64,000 bases of DNA from an uncultured Fluviicola sp. GTDB lineage: Bacteria; Bacteroidota; Bacteroidia; Flavobacteriales_D; Crocinitomicaceae. Positions 775-55,780 of the stretch are shown one piece after another. Location: NCBI GenBank assembly GCA_965650365.1, contig CBFGOJ010000016.1, positions 12,710 to 76,709 of the forward strand. The letters are read 5' to 3'. A program made the position numbers and the translations under genes. Numbering within the stretch: the first letter of the stretch is position 1; each line of letters begins with the position of its first letter. Under the pieces are notes generated by a model, which had not been told where the DNA came from, ran no database searches, and was given only the letters and a program-made list of their open reading frames with translations.

Positions 775-1908
775 ATGCGAATAGTTTTGGTCCTTTTATT
801 TCTGACGGCAAATTCACTGGTTTTCGGGCAGTCGGACAAAAAAATCATTAAACAGCTTAGCGCACAGTTATTACTGGAACAGCAAAAGCAGGATTCGGCT
901 TACGCAATTTTCCAGAAAGCCAAAAAAGAATACGATTCAATTAGGAGGCTGCTCACCGAAAAGACACTTCGTTTATCCGTGGAATACGGACTTGCTGAAA
1001 GTTCCGGGGAGCTTTTTTTTAAGAGATGTGCTCAATTGAAGGATTTGGGCCTGGATGCGGATGCAGTTGCAGCTCCTTTGACGAAGACCGATGGCCTTCC
1101 GGATTTCAGGCAAGTGTTAGCTCCAATCGACAAGTTTTCCATGAAGGCAGAAGAATTCGATAAAGTGGCTAATTCCTTTTTTCACGATAAGGATACTAAA
1201 CGGAAGGAATTAATTGCAATTGTCCGCAAGAAACTCATCGAATACCAGGATAATGAAAGATCCAACGAAGTGCGCCTGATAACTATGGAAAGAAAAGGTG
1301 AGCAACTGACTTCTTTTCTGTACGTAATCGATTCTTTGCAGCAGGCTTACAAGTTGGTGAATAATGAATTGGAGTCAAAAAACGCGAAATTAAGAGACAA
1401 ATTACATGAACTCCGGATCAATTATAAGGAAAAAGGTCCGAAAGGATTTCCTGAAGCATATCAAAAAGTATTCTACGATGCATTTCCACGATCAGTTTCA
1501 GAAACCAGTGAAGAAGCAATAAAAAATATTCATTCCGAAGGCATGAAATTGGATGAAGTTGTTGCTGAACCTGTTCTGCCTGAACCGGAAATTTATGAGC
1601 AGGTAGATGAAGTGGCTCTTTTTCCCGGAGGGCCTGAAGCCCGGAAGGAGTTTGTTTCCAAGAACCTGCGTTATCCGGATAAGTATAAAGAAATTGCAGT
1701 AGAAGGAAAAGTGGTCTTGAAATTCATTGTCTCTGAAAAAGGGGAGATTTCTGATATCAAGGTGCGAGTAAATTTCCCGGGTTGTAAAGAATGCGATGAT
1801 GAAGTAGTACGAATCGCCCAATTAATGCCACACTGGATTCCTGCCCGTTTGAACGGAAAGGCTGTGAAGTCTTATGCCCACTTGATCGTACGATTTGAAC
1901 TGGATTAA
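775..1908 (+). CDS. TonB C-terminal domain protein with signal peptide and long helical/coiled-coil region
   Basis: Signal peptide MRIVLVLLFLTANSLVFGQ. C-terminal FPGG...LRYP...EGKVVLKFIVSEKG...WIPARLNGKAVKS. Paralog of the upstream gene. Confidence 0.85.
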   Translation: MRIVLVLLFLTANSLVFGQSDKKIIKQLSAQLLLEQQKQDSAYAIFQKAKKEYDSIRRLLTEKTLRLSVEYGLAESSGELFFKRCAQLKDLGLDADAVAAPLTKTDGLPDFRQVLAPIDKFSMKAEEFDKVANSFFHDKDTKRKELIAIVRKKLIEYQDNERSNEVRLITMERKGEQLTSFLYVIDSLQQAYKLVNNELESKNAKLRDKLHELRINYKEKGPKGFPEAYQKVFYDAFPRSVSETSEEAIKNIHSEGMKLDEVVAEPVLPEPEIYEQVDEVALFPGGPEARKEFVSKNLRYPDKYKEIAVEGKVVLKFIVSEKGEISDIKVRVNFPGCKECDDEVVRIAQLMPHWIPARLNGKAVKSYAHLIVRFELD

Positions 1909-2393: not shown

Positions 2394-2927
2394 ATGGGGG
2401 TGAAACATATAAATGGTTCTGTAAGAGCGAAATGGTGGGATTATTCTGATACTGGGACTTACTTCCTTACAATTTGTACGAAAGACAAAATTCCTTATTT
2501 CGGTAAGGTTCAGAATGGTAAAGTTCAGTTAACCAAAATTGGTGAAATTCTTTCTGAAGAATGGTTGAAAACGGCAGGATTAAGGCCGAAGATGAAAGTA
2601 GAGCTGCATGAATTTGTTATAATGCCTGATCATTTTCATGCGTTGATCACGATAGGGGTAAACCAGTTCAATGGGAAAGATTCCTTTGTAAATGAATCCG
2701 GGAGTTTTAAAAACAATGAATTCAAACCACAATCAAATAATTTGGGATCAATTGTCCGAGGATTTAAATCGGCAGTTACGACAAGGTGTAAAAAGGCTGA
2801 TTTACCTTTTTGTTGGCAGCCCCGTTATTATGATGTGATCATCAAATCACCGGAACAATTTGCAAATGTTCAACGATATATTTTGGATAATCCTCGTAGG
2901 CACGCGATGCGTCGCGTGCCTACATAA
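2394..2927 (+). mobile_element. REP-associated tyrosine transposase (RAYT; Y1/IS200-fold HUH nuclease)
   Basis: Motifs YFLTICT, IMPDHFH (HUH), WQPRYYD and YILDNP (catalytic Tyr region). A GTAG hairpin overlaps its 3' end. Confidence 0.88.
2896..2923. repeat. GTAG-type REP hairpin, copy 1
   Basis: GTAGGCACGCGA-TGCG-TCGCGTGCCTAC, perfect 12-bp stem, inside the last codons of the RAYT gene. Confidence 0.9.
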
Positions 2928-2947: not shown

Positions 2948-3709
2948 TTACCGCAGCAAAAATTCCAAAACCGCATTCATAAATTCCTCCGGTTTTTCCG
3001 CATGTACCCAATGTCCGGCGTCTTCAATCGTTATAAATGAAGAATCCGGGAATTGATTTTCAATGTCGGAAATATCTGCATCAACGATGTAATTTGAAAG
3101 CCCGCCGCGAATGAACAGGGTTTGCACCATGACTTCCTGTTCCGGTATTGCTTTCAGTATATTGGGCATTTCTCTTTCCAATACTTCTACGTTCATGCGC
3201 CAGGCCAATTTCCCTTTTTCAATCCAATACAGGTTTTTCATCAGGAAAAGACGGGTTCCGTTTTCGGGCACAAAAGGAAGTAGAATTTCTTCTGCAGCCG
3301 AACGGGAATCCATTGCAGTGGCATTTAAAGCGGTAATTCCGGCTAAAATTTGCTGGTGATGCGGCGGATAACCCCGGATTCCCATGTCAACAACGATCAT
3401 TTTCTCAATCGTGTCGGGATAAAGCTGCGCATAACGCATGACGGTTTTTCCACCCATGGAATGACCCAATAGATTGACTTTTTCCAATCCAAGGTCTGTG
3501 ATCAGTTCATGAAGATCTGCTGCAAGTAAGTCGTAATCGAATTCGTTGCTCCAGTCTGTGTGACCGTGATTTCGTTGGTCGACCAGAATAACCTGGAAAT
3601 ATTCCGATAAGCGTTTGGCGTGGGTCTGCCAATTGTCTGAAGAACCAAAAAGTCCGTGAAGGATGATCAATGGTTTTCCTTCCCCGATAATGCGATGCTG
3701 CAATTTCAT
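2948..3709 (-). CDS. Alpha/beta fold hydrolase (YbfF-like esterase)
   Basis: HGLFGSSDNW, GHSMGG nucleophile elbow, AGHWVHAE. Confidence 0.9.
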   Translation of the reverse strand: MKLQHRIIGEGKPLIILHGLFGSSDNWQTHAKRLSEYFQVILVDQRNHGHTDWSNEFDYDLLAADLHELITDLGLEKVNLLGHSMGGKTVMRYAQLYPDTIEKMIVVDMGIRGYPPHHQQILAGITALNATAMDSRSAAEEILLPFVPENGTRLFLMKNLYWIEKGKLAWRMNVEVLEREMPNILKAIPEQEVMVQTLFIRGGLSNYIVDADISDIENQFPDSSFITIEDAGHWVHAEKPEEFMNAVLEFLLR

Positions 3710-30783: not shown

Positions 30784-30811
30784 GTAGGGACGCGATGCGT
30801 CGCGTCCGTAC
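30784..30811. repeat. GTAG-type REP hairpin, copy 2
   Basis: GTAGGGACGCGA-TGCG-TCGCGTCCGTAC (one stem mismatch), 22 nt after the stop at 30834. Confidence 0.9.
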
Positions 30812-30833: not shown

Positions 30834-33302
30834 TTAAAAATTGAATTTCATATTCCGGTCATCCAGTACGGCAAAGGAAATCTTCCCGGTCCATCTTGGT
30901 GTAATGTTATTCCCATCTGAGAAAACGCCGTAAATACCGATTCGAAGCCTTCTTTTTGAAAACTTGAAGTTGCGTTCTATTCCTGCCAGGACCTCATAAT
31001 GCTTCCAGTTATATTCGGCTACATACAACGCACCAAAGCCAAAAACCAACCCAATTCCGGTTTTCTTCATAAAAGGGATTTTATTCATGATGGACCCGTT
31101 ATCGTGATGGATGAAGTGCGCTTCGATGTAATAATCCCGGGAAGGAAGAGAAGAATCCTGGTCCTGGAAAGAATATAAAGGATTGGAGAACCAAAGCGGA
31201 TCACTGCGGCGCTGGTATTTAAAGTCCGCATCCTTCAGGCTTTTTGAGCTCAGGAACTTTCCGGATTTAACATGATAAGAAGAAGTTCCAAAAGTTCCCA
31301 ATTGAAAGTTCTGATAAATTCCCAGTAATCCGTATTCGTGGTTTACATCGCTTCCGAATAGTTTAGGAATTCCGCGCTCGTAAGAAGCATAAACGGTTGG
31401 CCATTTGGAACCCAGAACAACTTTCCGATGAGGTTCGCGCATGTATTTCTGTCCGGGAGTATAACTAACGGTCATTGATCCGATGAATGCCTGGTAGCCC
31501 TGGAATGGTTTAAAATCGTCATTGGGAAAAACGCTGTCCAGGAATCCCATTTTTTTGTAGCCGTTAATAGACCGGCGCTCGGTAAATTCAAAATCAACAT
31601 CCACATACAAACCGTTGATGTATTCCTGGGTCTGACCGATGGTTAGCGATGTAGCTTCAATAAAATTACTCCGCTTATAAATCTGGGTGATTGCATCGTA
31701 GGAAACCACGGCATCGAAATCATGATCGAAACCGCCCCTGAGCCGGGCCTGCCTGAATGGATCATAAAGCCAATTCCCATTGATGTTTCCCTTGATGTCA
31801 TGATTCAGGAATCCATAGGAAATCTCTGTGTTGATATCCAGGGTCCGCTGGTCGTCCCATTTTTTGAAGAAACTGAAACCCGGTGCAACACGCGGACCGG
31901 CAGGATACAAAGGTCTCGCCATTGCTGCCAGTGAACTGATCGACCATTGTGTTCTTTTCAAACGATTCCGGTGTTCGACTCCAAACCAAAGCACTTTCAG
32001 GAAAGTAACTTTGTTAAAGACTTTATCAATCGAATCGAGGTATTCTTTCCGGTTCATCGCATCGTGAATACTGTCCCTGACAAGAATGAAGCGCTGTTCT
32101 TCCGGAGTTAAAGCAATTGCGCGCTGCCCGTTCCAAAATGCGGTGTCCTGTTCATATGCTTTCTCCGTTGTGACTGCCAGTTCATTGTTGAAAAACTTCG
32201 GAGAGAAATTCGGCTGGAAATTGTAATTCGAGAATTGGGCAACCGTCTTGCAGGTCGAAGTTTCATTTTTGTATTTCACTCCATAATCCAGGGTCTGTTC
32301 TTTCAGAACGCACATAGAATCTCCGGGAAGATCAAATTCCTGGTGGATGGAAAAGTAATCGTAAACGAAAAGGTTTCCCTTTTCCATGGTCAGGTCCAGT
32401 TTCTGGATCAGCCAAAGCGAATCAATCACGTAAATATATCCCGAGAGAGTAGAAGTGGAACTCATGCGCGGAATGATTTTGATCTTATTAATCTTTCTGC
32501 CGTTCTCTTCGTACTGTGCTTCCAGTTTGTAACGATAGGACAAAATTCCAGGTGTGGAAACAGGACTCATGACGGGTGTGCTGTGCAGGTCTTCCAAATG
32601 AAGCAGATTCTGGAAAAAGTTGAAATTGGATTTAACCGTTGTGGTGTAATAAAGATTTTGTTCCTGTCCGCGCAATTCATAAGCATTCCGGATTTCTTTT
32701 ACTTTGTTGGGCGGAGAATAATTGCGTGTAAGCTGGATTTCTGCAATGTTCATGTTTCCGGCCAGCTTTTCCATTTTCTGTTTTTCCAGTTCAAAAGGAT
32801 CTGTTTCGGGCTTATCGGGTTTATCCGATTCTTTTTCTTTTCGAGTGATAGATTCCGTGGCTTTGATATAGACATCTGTTGAATGCGCACGTTCCCATTG
32901 ATTGATCTGGTCGCGTTTTTTTACAACCTTCAGCATGATGTCCCGCCCGGGATTACTGCGTTTTGTAGTAATTTCAATATCGTCCAGTTCTTTGATTTTA
33001 ATGGGGAAGAGCTGAATGTCTTTTACAGCGCTTTTATTGGAAATAACCACATATGTTTCACGTTCCTGGTAACCTGTGGCGTTGACAACCAGGAAGTATT
33101 CGCCGTCGTAAAGCTGGATGGAGTATTTTCCGTTTTCGTCTGTTTGAGTCCGCAGGTCTGTATTGTTCTTCACATACACATTTGCGAAAGGAATGGGAAG
33201 CTTTTTTTCATCCAGCACAGTACCGCTCAGATTCCATTGCGAAAAGGAAAATGCAGGTATGCAGATAAAATAGAGTAGGTAAAAACCCTTCAAAAGCTTC
33301 AT
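30834..33302 (-). CDS. DUF5686 family outer-membrane protein with carboxypeptidase-like regulatory N-domain
   Basis: LSGTVLDEKKLPIPFANVY...TDENGKY (CarbopepD_reg-like), LDEIEIT-like motif, beta-barrel-like C-terminus ending in Phe. Confidence 0.75.
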   Translation of the reverse strand: MKLLKGFYLLYFICIPAFSFSQWNLSGTVLDEKKLPIPFANVYVKNNTDLRTQTDENGKYSIQLYDGEYFLVVNATGYQERETYVVISNKSAVKDIQLFPIKIKELDDIEITTKRSNPGRDIMLKVVKKRDQINQWERAHSTDVYIKATESITRKEKESDKPDKPETDPFELEKQKMEKLAGNMNIAEIQLTRNYSPPNKVKEIRNAYELRGQEQNLYYTTTVKSNFNFFQNLLHLEDLHSTPVMSPVSTPGILSYRYKLEAQYEENGRKINKIKIIPRMSSTSTLSGYIYVIDSLWLIQKLDLTMEKGNLFVYDYFSIHQEFDLPGDSMCVLKEQTLDYGVKYKNETSTCKTVAQFSNYNFQPNFSPKFFNNELAVTTEKAYEQDTAFWNGQRAIALTPEEQRFILVRDSIHDAMNRKEYLDSIDKVFNKVTFLKVLWFGVEHRNRLKRTQWSISSLAAMARPLYPAGPRVAPGFSFFKKWDDQRTLDINTEISYGFLNHDIKGNINGNWLYDPFRQARLRGGFDHDFDAVVSYDAITQIYKRSNFIEATSLTIGQTQEYINGLYVDVDFEFTERRSINGYKKMGFLDSVFPNDDFKPFQGYQAFIGSMTVSYTPGQKYMREPHRKVVLGSKWPTVYASYERGIPKLFGSDVNHEYGLLGIYQNFQLGTFGTSSYHVKSGKFLSSKSLKDADFKYQRRSDPLWFSNPLYSFQDQDSSLPSRDYYIEAHFIHHDNGSIMNKIPFMKKTGIGLVFGFGALYVAEYNWKHYEVLAGIERNFKFSKRRLRIGIYGVFSDGNNITPRWTGKISFAVLDDRNMKFNF

Positions 33303-48702: not shown

Positions 48703-49278
48703 ATGCAAGTAACCAAACAGATATTGTTGGGGTCCGCTGAAAATGATAGACGCTCGCAAAAAGTGCTCTACGAGTATTGTTACAGGCAGTTTATTCGCCT
48801 GTGCATGCGCTATTATGCCAATCACGAGGACGCACGATTTGCATTGAATAATGGGTTTTTGAAGATTGTAAACGGCTTGCAGAATGTGGATTTGGATGAA
48901 TTGAACTTTCCTGCCTGGGCAAAACGAATTATTGTAAACACGCTGATTGATGAATACCGCAAGAATAAAAATCACAATCAGCTAATAATAGCGAAGGAAA
49001 CAGAGTCAGAACTGGCGAATTCTGCTGAAAGGGTTGAAAATTTAGGATCATTGGAATTGAATTACCAGGAAATCCTCGATCTTTTAAAAACCATTCCGCC
49101 GATTTCAGCACATGTTTTTACGCTTTATGTGATTGACGGATATAACCACAAGGAAATCGGTGATTTACTCGAGATTTCCGAAGGAACTTCTAAATGGCAT
49201 CTTTCTACGGCACGAAAACTGCTAAGAGACAGATTGGAATTGATGGAGAACAGGTACGACAAACGCTTTGTAATATGA
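48703..49278 (+). CDS. ECF (sigma-70 family) RNA polymerase sigma factor
   Basis: LNNGFLKI, AWAKRIIVNT.IDEYRK (region 2), VFTLYVIDGYNHKEIGDLLEISEGTSKWHLS.AR (region 4). Confidence 0.95.
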   Translation: MQVTKQILLGSAENDRRSQKVLYEYCYRQFIRLCMRYYANHEDARFALNNGFLKIVNGLQNVDLDELNFPAWAKRIIVNTLIDEYRKNKNHNQLIIAKETESELANSAERVENLGSLELNYQEILDLLKTIPPISAHVFTLYVIDGYNHKEIGDLLEISEGTSKWHLSTARKLLRDRLELMENRYDKRFVI

Positions 49279-50507
49279 AATATTCAGACCGACATATCAG
49301 CGACGAAGAGCTGGATCAGTTGTTCAGAGACGCACATGCTTCTGAAGGACCAGAGGCGCTCTTTGTTCCGGAGTTCTGGTCTGACATGGAAGCCATGCTC
49401 CCGGCAGATCCCAAAAAGAAACGCGGGTTTTATTGGATTCCTTTAGCAGCTGCAAGCATTTTGGTTGGAATTATTCTATTCTATCCTTCTAATCCTGCGA
49501 AAATTGAACACTTTACACAGAATGAGAAAGATAATGCGAATGAGAAGGAAATCCGTAGCCGATCAGTTGCGGCTGATCGCTACGAAAGATTAAATGAGAA
49601 ATCAGAAAATCCGGTAATTGTTGCAAATACAACGGTTCAATCGTCTGATATTGCATCACATAAACCGCAAATCAAAACAACGTTTAAAACGAAGAAAAAA
49701 CAAATACGCATCCAGGAATCGGATAACAACACAGTGAAAGAAACACCTCTTAATTCAACAGATAGAAACAGTGAAAATCCGGCGGATAGAGTTGTAACCG
49801 TAAACCAGGAGATTGATTCCAATCCTCATTCTCTTTCTCCCCTTGATTCTGTTAACCTGCAGGCTCGTTACGAGAACGTTCGCCACGACCAGATTGAAGC
49901 TTTGCCAGCTAATTTGTCGAATGAATCCAGTGAATGGTATGTGGAATTAGGTCCGACCCTTGGTCAATCTCCTTACTTGTCTCCTGACCAGAAACGCAAT
50001 GCGGCCGGTGGTGCAGTATTCGGTGGTGGGTATACCAAAAGAATTGATAATGCCTTTGTAAGTTTTGGTTTGCAGGCACGAATGGAAGGTTTTGGGGGAT
50101 TGGAATACCGCGAAACAAACTTCTCTCAGAATATGGTGAGAACGGTTTCTGTGAAACAATTGTATTCTTTGGAAATTCCTTTGAAATTTGGTTATAGCTT
50201 TAAACGTTCAGAGTTTGCTATAGGCGTTACACCGGGATTGCAATTATTCCTACATGGAAAAGAGCGGATCACCGAAAATCAGGTGGTACAACGTGAAAAT
50301 AAATTCACCGGAAAAGTAGAACATTCCAATTCATTGACCATGGAATTCGGTTTGCAGTACTATTATAACATTACTCCACGCTTTAGTCTTGGTGCGAAAT
50401 TGAATGCAGATATTTTACGTCCTTTCCATACGGATTATTACTTAGGTAAATCTGCCGGACTTCCAATGAATGGGCAAATTGTGTTCCGGACAAGATTCCT
50501 GAAGTAG
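49275..50507 (+). CDS. Putative anti-sigma factor: cytoplasmic N-segment, TM helix, linker, C-terminal outer-membrane beta-barrel
   Basis: DEELDQLFR...WSDMEAML, TM FYWIPLAAASILVGIILFY, low-complexity linker, barrel with YSLEIPLKFGY. ATG 49275 overlaps the sigma stop. Confidence 0.75.
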   Translation: MKYSDRHISDEELDQLFRDAHASEGPEALFVPEFWSDMEAMLPADPKKKRGFYWIPLAAASILVGIILFYPSNPAKIEHFTQNEKDNANEKEIRSRSVAADRYERLNEKSENPVIVANTTVQSSDIASHKPQIKTTFKTKKKQIRIQESDNNTVKETPLNSTDRNSENPADRVVTVNQEIDSNPHSLSPLDSVNLQARYENVRHDQIEALPANLSNESSEWYVELGPTLGQSPYLSPDQKRNAAGGAVFGGGYTKRIDNAFVSFGLQARMEGFGGLEYRETNFSQNMVRTVSVKQLYSLEIPLKFGYSFKRSEFAIGVTPGLQLFLHGKERITENQVVQRENKFTGKVEHSNSLTMEFGLQYYYNITPRFSLGAKLNADILRPFHTDYYLGKSAGLPMNGQIVFRTRFLK

Positions 50508-50531
50508 GGACGCTACGCATCGCGTCCCTAC
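50504..50531. repeat. GTAG-type REP hairpin, copy 3 (reverse orientation)
   Basis: GTAGGGACGCTA-CGCA-TCGCGTCCCTAC. Its GTAG contains the TAG stop of the preceding gene. Confidence 0.9.
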
Positions 50532-54870: not shown

Positions 54871-54898
54871 GTAGGTACGCAATGCGTTGCGTACCTAC
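54871..54898. repeat. GTAG-type REP hairpin, copy 4
   Basis: GTAGGTACGCAA-TGCG-TTGCGTACCTAC, perfect stem, 3 nt after the stop at 54902. Confidence 0.9.
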
Positions 54899-54901
54899 GG
54901 T

Positions 54902-55780
54902 TCAATTTTCAATTTTCACCTGATTGATCTTAAAGCAATAGAGCATTTTCTGCGTCTGGACGTACAAACGATCACCCGAAACCTCCATTTTCAGTATTTT
55001 GGAATCAAGTACGGCATCTCCTGCGAAAAAAAATGCAACAAATTCCGCATTGAGATCTATTGTTTGAATGTTTTTGCCCTCGGCGATCAGGAAATAGTCC
55101 TGGATCGGGTAAATGGGCTTGTTGGGAATTAACGTGGCCACATCCATAAAATTTCCGAATTGATCGAACCAGGCAACCTGGTTGACTTCGTCAAATAAAT
55201 ACAGGCGGTTATCAATTTCTTGTATGTTGACAATGGATTTCATGTTCAGCAGCCCTTTTACATTCTGAATCAATTGTCCTTGTGAATTGCGCAGTGTAAT
55301 CAGTTCTATTTGTGAATTCGGTTCGTCGTAAATCCAAATGCGGTCTGTTTGAATGGAAGCGCTCATGCTTGCTGCCAAGCTGATGTTCAGATCGCTTAAA
55401 TAAATGCATTCTCCCTGCAAGGCCAAAGCATTGTCCAAAAAACAAATACTTTGCTGATCTTCGGAAAAAAGGGCAATTTTCAAAGGGTTTTGAGCATCTA
55501 TCTTTTGAATGTTCCCAAGCGACTTAATACTTTCCTGCAGCATGACCTGTCCTTTGGCATCCCGCTTTTGAATATTCTGATTTTGATAAATGATACTTTG
55601 ATGAATCGGGTCAATGTCCCAGATAGCCGTTGAGTCCAGGTCAATGTGCCAGAGTTCTTTCCATGTTTGCTGTGCACTTCCCAAAAGGGGAACTGCTGTC
55701 AGTAGAACCAAACCAAAAAGTCTAGACATATTGAAGGGTTTCGAACTCCGCGTCCTGCAAGATCTGTTCCACGATTTCAC
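54902..55780 (-). CDS. Hypothetical exported beta-propeller-like protein
   Basis: Signal-like segment, FLDNAL, DRIWIYD and FDQFGNF motifs. The true start is probably about 55729. Confidence 0.65.
   Translation of the reverse strand: MKSWNRSCRTRSSKPFNMSRLFGLVLLTAVPLLGSAQQTWKELWHIDLDSTAIWDIDPIHQSIIYQNQNIQKRDAKGQVMLQESIKSLGNIQKIDAQNPLKIALFSEDQQSICFLDNALALQGECIYLSDLNISLAASMSASIQTDRIWIYDEPNSQIELITLRNSQGQLIQNVKGLLNMKSIVNIQEIDNRLYLFDEVNQVAWFDQFGNFMDVATLIPNKPIYPIQDYFLIAEGKNIQTIDLNAEFVAFFFAGDAVLDSKILKMEVSGDRLYVQTQKMLYCFKINQVKIEN

Follow-up and report, generated by a model that had tools for sequence, protein, structure and literature searches.

On a contig from an uncultured Fluviicola species, a gene resembling the transposases called RAYTs stops inside a short palindrome that begins with GTAG and ends with CTAC. 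Does the C-terminus of this enzyme consist of its own REP, as an original prediction made from the sequence of the locus had proposed, and if so, what is conserved there, the peptide or the hairpin? We examined this question in the source genome (G000; 4.50 Mb in 67 contigs, 40.9% GC) and in its relatives, taking as the window the whole 64,000-nt stretch of DNA that surrounds the gene (C16:12710-76709). The gene is called RAYT1 here, and the features discussed are collected in Table 1. The explanation that best accounts for the data overall, and that we regard as very probable, is that RAYT1 is a subclass 2.4 RAYT accompanied by cognate double-foot REPs, that the REP at its 3' end is a REPtron REP into which translation now reads, and that the REPs dispersed through the genome are terminator-like.

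Table 1. Positions of the genes and REPs discussed in the text. Plain numbers are positions in the window; prefixed numbers refer to other contigs or genomes.
Feature	Position	Strand	Description
TonB_C-like gene	775..1908	+	ORF; conserved syntenic neighbour upstream of RAYT1
RAYT1	2394..2927	+	ORF, 177 aa; single-copy TnpA_REP/RAYT, assigned by sequence to subclass 2.4
REP GTAGGCACGCGATGCGTCGCGTGCCTAC	2896..2923	.	double foot; within the last 10 codons of RAYT1 (RRHAMRRVPT)
alpha/beta-hydrolase gene	2948..3709	-	ORF; conserved syntenic neighbour, convergent with RAYT1
REP GTAGGGACGCGATGCGTCGCGTCCGTAC	30784..30811	.	22 nt past the 3' end of minus-strand gene 30834..33302
REP GTAGGGACGCTACGCATCGCGTCCCTAC	50504..50531	.	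opposite loop orientation
REP GTAGGTACGCAATGCGTTGCGTACCTAC	54871..54898	.	3 nt past the 3' end of minus-strand gene 54902..55780
RAYT2	C32:47377-47910	-	outside the window; subclass 2.4, 34% identical to RAYT1
Third Y1 gene	C6:42408-42605	-	2.6 type
RAYT2 remnant (L049)	G001:C14:78855-79106		5' half lost

The open reading frame is indeed a RAYT (TnpA_REP). It carries an HUH motif at H80-F-H82 (DHFH), the pair W141-Q142 and the catalytic tyrosine Y162 within YILDNP, and its C-terminus reads ...QRYILDNP-RRHAMRRVPT before a TAA stop. Residues H80, H82, W141, Y162 and N166 are invariant across 60 homologues. The protein matches the Pfam family Y1_Tnp (PF01797) with 25.5 bits, above the cut-off of 23. 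Its sole NCBIfam match, to NF047646 (REP_Tyr_transpos), scores 63.4 bits, does not reach the cut-off of 80 and is restricted to model positions 67-136; this model appears to have been derived from proteobacterial RAYTs, and the low score weakens the naming of RAYT1 as an equivalog rather than its membership of the wider family. When the PDB was searched by sequence, one match only was returned, E. coli TnpA_REP (4ER8), in which PEHMH aligns with PDHFH and WQPRFWE...DYIYINPVKH with WQPRYYD...RYILDNPRRH. An AlphaFold2 model of RAYT1 (pLDDT 85, pTM 0.79) was then compared with the PDB using Foldseek: the top 30 matches were all IS200/IS605 TnpA or TnpA_REP proteins, and 4ER8 gave the tightest superposition (rmsd 2.9 A, TM 0.59/0.63). 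By its motifs and its predicted fold, RAYT1 is thus a member of the Y1 HUH superfamily.

Within that superfamily, RAYT1 is placed at the level of sequence in TnpA_REP subclass 2.4 through one listed member, F. taffensis AEA43096.1 (P0018 among our homologues), with which it is 61% identical across 96% of its length. This subclass, which is found in Cyanobacteria and Bacteroidetes (Quentin et al. 2018, BMC Genomics 19:475, PMC6006769), corresponds to group 4 of Bertels (PMC5581495), and its enzymes share the motifs NH[IFV]H, WQ and YIxNNP, a long and variable spacing between HUH and tyrosine, and the absence of a C-terminal extension domain (PMC6006769). RAYT1 resembles them in its Bacteroidetes host, in having WQ and YIxxNP, in its long variable spacing (80 aa from HUH to tyrosine, against a published median of 88) and in lacking the extension domain. 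It has DHFH where the published consensus is NH[IFV]H, with D and N forms both present among its close homologues, and YILDNP where homologues have YIINNP or YIENNP.

The original prediction had described four hairpins in the window. A pattern search recovered exactly four such 28-mers, at 2896, 30784, 50504 and 54871 (none in 100 shuffles), and a covariance model run with filters off returned the same four hairpins only, with E-values of about 1e-10 to 1e-7. Folded as single-stranded DNA, they reach -10.4 to -15.2 kcal/mol (z-scores -4.2 to -7.0). As had been proposed, GTAG is paired within the stem on both strands, the feet being GTAG...CTAC, and the copy at 30784 has a single foot mismatch (CCGTAC). 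The compensatory changes that had been named are also present, since pair 6/23 is C-G, G-C, G-C and T-A in the four copies and pair 11/18 is G-C, G-C and A-T in three of them (the copy at 54871 having T-A and A-T at the two sites), but the copy at 50504 carries a T/C mismatch at 11/18. Likewise, the description as a 28-bp GTAG-CTAC family stands, but the architecture is better given as a 12-bp stem with a 4-nt loop, many copies being perfect 14+14 palindromes. The REP in RAYT1 ends 24 nt short of the stop codon of the convergent hydrolase gene, and the stop codon of gene 49194..50507 is itself the TAG (50505-50507) of the GTAG foot in the REP at 50504. The covariance model, again with filters off, found no degenerate REP upstream of RAYT1, in line with the prediction that none flanks the gene on that side.

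The four copies belong to a large family. A structure-based scan of the genome identified 103 hairpins with an exact GTAG/CTAC foot, nearly all of them 28 nt long, and GTAG was the commonest foot among all 256 tetramers, A-runs aside; with near matches added, the total comes to about 132 copies of 28 bp in the 4.5-Mb genome, far from just the few in the window. The centres of the palindromes define subfamilies: ATTAAT (type B, 43 copies, mostly identical to GTAGGGGCGCGATTAATCGCGCCCCTAC), ACGCAT or ATGCGT (type A, 33 copies, with the two loop orientations equally frequent), AAATTT (11 copies), TCGCGA (9 copies) and ATGCAT (9 copies). Type-A REPs are heterogeneous, whereas the type-B copies are nearly identical to one another. 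Changes on both sides were seen in 10 of the 12 stem pairs, and the covariation score was 0.43, compared with 0.15 for shuffled sequences and at most 0.10 for slid registers, in a hairpin set that had been selected partly for pairing or palindromy; in a set selected by sequence only, positions 6/23, on which the selection placed no constraint, were 93% Watson-Crick (GC 19, CG 21, TA 3). An organisation into REPIN-type doublets was considered and rejected, as the copies are singletons, with only partial half-copies beside some.

At a few loci, half-REPs or short adjoining units are tandemly duplicated beside full REPs. Three units, GTAGGGACGAAATGCACA, SGHTML and GGGAAGGTT, are each present in threefold repetition, and the loci lie downstream of thyA in G017 (L024), in a RAYT linker of G002 (L016) and in the RAYT1 tail of G017 (L006). 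These tandem duplications suggest slippage or template switching at the hairpin.

Several lines of evidence connect this hairpin family with RAYT genes. The RAYT complement of the genome consists of two diverged subclass 2.4 genes and one 2.6-like gene, with no duplicates. In RAYT2, the linker between HUH and tyrosine holds an in-frame type-B REP (...HDES-VGARLIAPLP-KQKS...) that is conserved in RAYT2 orthologues, and a 28-bp variant REP (GTAAGGGCGTAAAATTTTACGCCCTTAC) and a half-REP lie 23-70 nt upstream of the gene. A REP is therefore present within both 2.4 RAYT genes, where uniform placement predicts 0.016 per gene. Among the relatives, RAYT homologues were found in 18 of the 25 genomes of the genus, and REPs flank, overlap or interrupt many of them. 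They lie on both sides of the gene in three genomes (G012, G021, G024); the RAYT is followed by or ends in a REP in five (G003, G007, G010, G017, G021), with an overlap at the stop codon in G010 and G021; and it is interrupted in frame by a REP in four (G002, G013, G017, G019), as well as in two genomes from other genera (G033, G036) and in a Rikenellaceae MAG (L002).

Across 41 genomes, the presence of a RAYT was associated with REP abundance (16/23 versus 4/18, odds ratio 8, p = 0.004), on semi-quantitative covariance-model counts taken from the best 150 scored candidates per genome with both strands counted. For type B, at least 10 REPs were present in each of eight genomes, six of which carry a RAYT2 orthologue or remnant, against 0 of 18 B-poor genomes (p = 1.2e-4). 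The correspondence has exceptions. REPs occur without a detectable RAYT in four genomes (G006, G008, G023, G028), and G024, with 38 type-A REPs, lacks an orthologue of RAYT1; RAYT1 and type A are thus not strictly paired. Separately, the published REP of a second F. taffensis enzyme of subclass 2.4, AEA44767.1 (GTAGGGGTAGCTCGCGAGCTACCCCTAC; Table S1 of PMC6006769), was not found in the G011 locus. With REPs abundant across the genus, inside both RAYT genes and around the RAYTs of relatives, the proposal that the hairpins are the REP family of the RAYT holds.

Three further loci deserve mention in their own right. The third Y1 gene, of 2.6 type (NHVH, WQ, YIHNNP and a KYSSARNY tail), resembles F. 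taffensis AEA44309, and no strong hairpin was found near it. In another genus of the same order, a 321-aa open RAYT frame (L038, G033:C223) holds three in-frame REPs together with many short peptide repeats (AYPQC, ADA runs), an extreme case of REP colonisation of a gene. Finally, the RAYT2 remnant L049 starts in residues that its embedded REP encodes (..GRLIAPLQ..): the breakpoint lies in this REP, and the gene has lost its 5' half.

How, then, does RAYT1 come to end in a REP? Comparison of its orthologues shows a REP at the same 3' position in G007, G017, G010 and G003 and in metagenomic homologues, in reading frames that differ. The source genome and six metagenomic homologues (69-86% identity) end in NP-RRHAMRRVPT, the G007 protein ends in NPSQ-WGRDASHPH and the G017 protein in NPSKWK...GDAMHRVPI...; in G010 the stop codon is the foot's TAG, and in G003 the REP begins 3 nt past the stop. 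Some relatives, F. taffensis included, end in NPSKWKxx or NPQNYKSK, and read-through is absent. In one homologue (P0006) the tail is RRLALRREPK, encoded by GTAGGCTCGCGTTGCGTCGCGAGCCTAA, and stem pair 7/22 has changed from A-T to T-A, a double substitution that turns H to L and V to E in the coding tail. Judged from these alignments, what is conserved at the end of RAYT1 is the hairpin DNA and not the peptide, which follows from the hairpin. A conserved, functional tail peptide encoded by the REP was rejected on these grounds, because the frames of the orthologues differ and the compensatory stem change alters two residues.

We also rejected the idea that a C-terminal hairpin is peculiar to the RAYT, as 15 gene ends take their stop from the foot's TAG. 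Two unrelated genes in the genome read into a REP, and at two REPs (C6:25593 and C6:81665) both feet provide TAG stops, one to each of the abutting convergent genes. The claim that the C-terminus of RAYT1 is its own REP is thus right in that the last codons lie inside a REP, and needs qualifying in that the peptide is not conserved, that unrelated gene ends also use REPs and that the enzyme is only loosely paired with type-A copies. In the account that we favour, the REP at this position would be the 3' REP of an ancestral 'REPtron'. With the native tail (NPSKWK...stop) lost in this lineage, translation would enter the hairpin for ten codons, and the resulting peptide would be a by-product, selection acting on the DNA or RNA hairpin.

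A REP kept in or at the end of the RAYT reading frame in many lineages could also be accounted for if it served as a cis-regulatory device, in which a hairpin in the mRNA, or the RAYT bound to the hairpin of its own gene, throttles synthesis of the enzyme. In the RAYTs of many species, REPs do recur at two fixed sites, one in the HUH-Tyr linker and one at the 3' end. They have been retained for long, since RAYT2 orthologues that are about 65% identical share the site and RAYT1 homologues at 69 to 86% identity all end in a REP, and the copy in the reading frame matches the local REP variant of each genome. Even so, we think such a device unlikely: the RAYT2 orthologue of G024 and F. taffensis AEA43096 are intact without a REP in the ORF, REPs stand at the ends of unrelated genes too, and the linker has been read as a tolerant surface loop (Quentin 2018, PMC6006769). 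A by-product of read-through into a REPtron REP remains our preferred explanation of the tail.

The neighbourhood of RAYT1 is informative about its inheritance. The order TonB_C / RAYT / hydrolase is common to G017, G007, G018 and G010; Pfam Abhydrolase_1 was called on the hydrolase homologue at two loci (L051, L052) and PF03544 TonB_C on the homologue of the upstream gene at one (L052). Identity amounts to 85-89% for the hydrolase in G017, G007 and G018 and to 61-67% for RAYT1 across the syntenic loci; RAYT1 is therefore vertically inherited and fast-evolving. It is a domesticated transposase, with a low copy number, a fixed locus and vertical descent. At some RAYT1 orthologues the TonB_C-like gene upstream occurs as two or three tandem paralogues (L001, L052).

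Domestication might in principle have given way to decay, such that the REP overwrote the native tail (NPSKWK) of RAYT1 and the REPs are now fossils or are served by RAYT2 only. In the sister clade and in most paralogues the tyrosine motif is still followed by NP-x-[KN]-[WY], whereas in G000 the REP directly abuts NP; RAYT1 is already truncated in G018; and the heterogeneity of the A-type REPs, set against the near-identity of type B, could be read in the same way. Yet the RAYT1 reading frame is intact with all its catalytic residues, the REP-encoded NP-R-R-H resembles NP-V-K-H of E. coli TnpA_REP and NPKKH or NPKNH of RAYT2 orthologues, and the same intact architecture is found in the six metagenomic homologues, at 69-86% identity. 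A decaying RAYT1 therefore seems to us quite improbable.

An active RAYT1 would be expected to work on its REPs much as related enzymes do. If E. coli TnpA_REP and the Y1 transposases of IS200/IS605 are taken as models, the enzyme would bind the folded REP in single-stranded DNA, read the GTAG foot, and cut and rejoin beside the foot through its HUH/Tyr site; such cutting and rejoining would multiply and homogenise the REPs. With a foot on each strand, both would offer the same substrate.

The distribution of the copies points to a second role. The 105 intergenic REPs comprise 44 in convergent, 58 in tandem and 3 in divergent arrangements, and a further 18 overlap the 3' end of a gene. Their median distance from a stop codon is 16.5 nt, with 82% lying within 30 nt. 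In 42% of REPs the flanking sequence adds 3 or more base pairs to the stem, compared with 4.5% when partners are shuffled. An A4 run lies on the 5' side of 49 of the 132 REPs and a T4 run on the 3' side of 60 (scored within 10 nt of the REP); in the reverse sense the counts were 10 and 3. Since they follow closely on stop codons and have an A-tract on one side and a T-tract on the other, the REPs probably double as terminator stems; most likely, the dispersed copies would act as the stems of bidirectional intrinsic terminators or as 3'-end stabilisers, including the copy between RAYT1 and its convergent neighbour. The REP at 2896 has neither a T-tract nor paired flanks, and the case for a terminator role is accordingly weaker there than for most copies.

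Comparison of REP occupancy across relatives leads in the same direction. All species of the genus carry an A-tract, a hairpin and a T-tract downstream of thyA. In five genomes (G000, G019, G018, G017, G001) this hairpin is a REP, each time from another subfamily, and in seven (G024, G011, G041, G023, G009, G007, G021) it is an ordinary unique stem. The pattern downstream of sod resembles that at thyA, with the REP absent there in G010. Sites that hold REPs in some species thus hold ordinary stems in others, and these comparisons place REPs in terminator positions. In G014, which has almost no REPs and no RAYT, the terminator stem downstream of thyA (GGGACGCG...CGCGTCCC; L036) has the REP core without the GTAG/CTAC feet, and could be either a decayed REP or a precursor.

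One might then ask whether a RAYT is needed at all, the hairpins being simply the preferred intrinsic-terminator stems of the genus, spread and kept by selection for termination. Their location at gene ends with A- and T-tracts, where relatives have ordinary terminators, agrees with this, as do the footless stem of G014 and the genomes that have REPs and no RAYT. Selection for termination would, however, have to explain some 30 identical copies at unrelated sites, feet that are near-invariant though GTAG/CTAC is of little use for termination, copies within both RAYT genes and flanking the RAYTs of relatives, and the correlation of REP abundance with RAYT presence; moreover, ordinary terminators of the same genomes have unique stems. 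We consider an origin uncoupled from RAYTs highly improbable, and retain the reading in which RAYT-associated REPs occupy terminator positions. It is conceivable, although we hold it to be rather doubtful, that in this genus REPs are not inserted randomly between genes but take over the stems of pre-existing bidirectional intrinsic terminators, with the A- and T-tracts kept, and are later replaced in place by whichever subfamily is currently spreading.

Set beside what is published, the arrangement of RAYT1 and its REPs has been known for this subclass since 2018, and it does not represent a new kind of system. REPs of subclass 2.4 include canonical and 'double foot' forms (5' GT[AG]G, 3' C[TC]AC), and a 'unique feature' of the subclass is the presence of REPs in frame within the tnpA_REP gene, generally between HUH and tyrosine (PMC6006769). 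Table S1 of the same study lists F. taffensis AEA43096.1 in subclass 2.4 with a double foot REP, GGGACGCGAGGCATCGCGTCCC, whose core is GGGACGCGA..TCGCGTCC. The Fluviicola REPs described here have the same feet and the same in-frame occurrence, and AEA43096.1 has the same REP core; with the double foot and the REP in the ORF both published for subclass 2.4, Fluviicola included, each feature that had been flagged as unusual was already known. One difference is that in RAYT1 the overlap with the REP is at the C-terminus and stop, not in the HUH-Tyr linker, RAYT2 being of the linker type. Group 4 RAYTs were reported to have modest repeat numbers nearby (Bertels et al. 2017, PMC5581495), with roughly 14 occurrences of flanking 16-mers against the ~132 REPs found here, and the source genome is therefore a REP-rich example of the group. 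Our additions are modest: a 3'-terminal in-gene REP whose hairpin is preserved from one orthologue to the next, a compensatory change of a stem pair within coding sequence, and REPs in terminator positions with turnover of subfamilies at orthologous sites.

More distant systems are alike in some respects and different in others. E. coli TnpA_REP with its REP/BIME elements (4ER8; PMC3479197, PMC2817692) shares the Y1 HUH fold and the WQPR...Y..NP.KH motifs, is likewise encoded by a single-copy gene, and has hairpins with GTAG feet and REPs at gene 3' ends, but it belongs to subclass 2.2, and its REPs are longer and bulged, with GTAG at one end, and are arranged around the gene and in BIME arrays, whereas those of Fluviicola are short, perfect, symmetric singletons, one of them in the ORF. 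The GTAG REP superfamily of Di Nocera et al. (2013, PMC3733652) is similar in its tag, in its sites downstream of ORFs in convergent or tandem settings, in occasional in-frame intragenic copies and in its association with RAYTs (REPtrons), and differs in having the tag at one end only. That survey reported the GTAG tag from Proteobacteria, Cyanobacteria, Chloroflexi and the PVC group; in Bacteroidetes it found no GTAG REPs, the CGTC type being the only one there (PMC3733652). The IS200/IS605 transposases (IS608, ISDra2) have the fold of the top Foldseek matches and, by analogy, a comparable recognition of subterminal hairpins in single-stranded DNA. They are, however, multi-copy mobile insertion sequences bounded by hairpins, whereas in Fluviicola only the hairpins are multi-copy and the gene itself is a syntenic single copy.

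For annotation, these results mean that the odd C-terminal tail of RAYT1 should be taken as read-through into a REP and not as a domain, and that the small palindromes of the form GTAG...CTAC standing at the ends of genes in Fluviicola-like genomes are REPs. Its compactness and symmetry (a perfect palindrome of 28 bp, a pair of RAYTs, several subfamilies that supply natural compensatory variants) and the presence of different subfamilies at orthologous sites in sister species make the system convenient for studying how REPs of subclass 2.4 are recognised, how they are spread by the enzymes and whether they act as terminators. If REPs do take over terminator stems and replace one another there, this would imply RAYT-driven, hairpin-targeted replacement or conversion, and the host would have handed over some of its terminators to a domesticated transposase.
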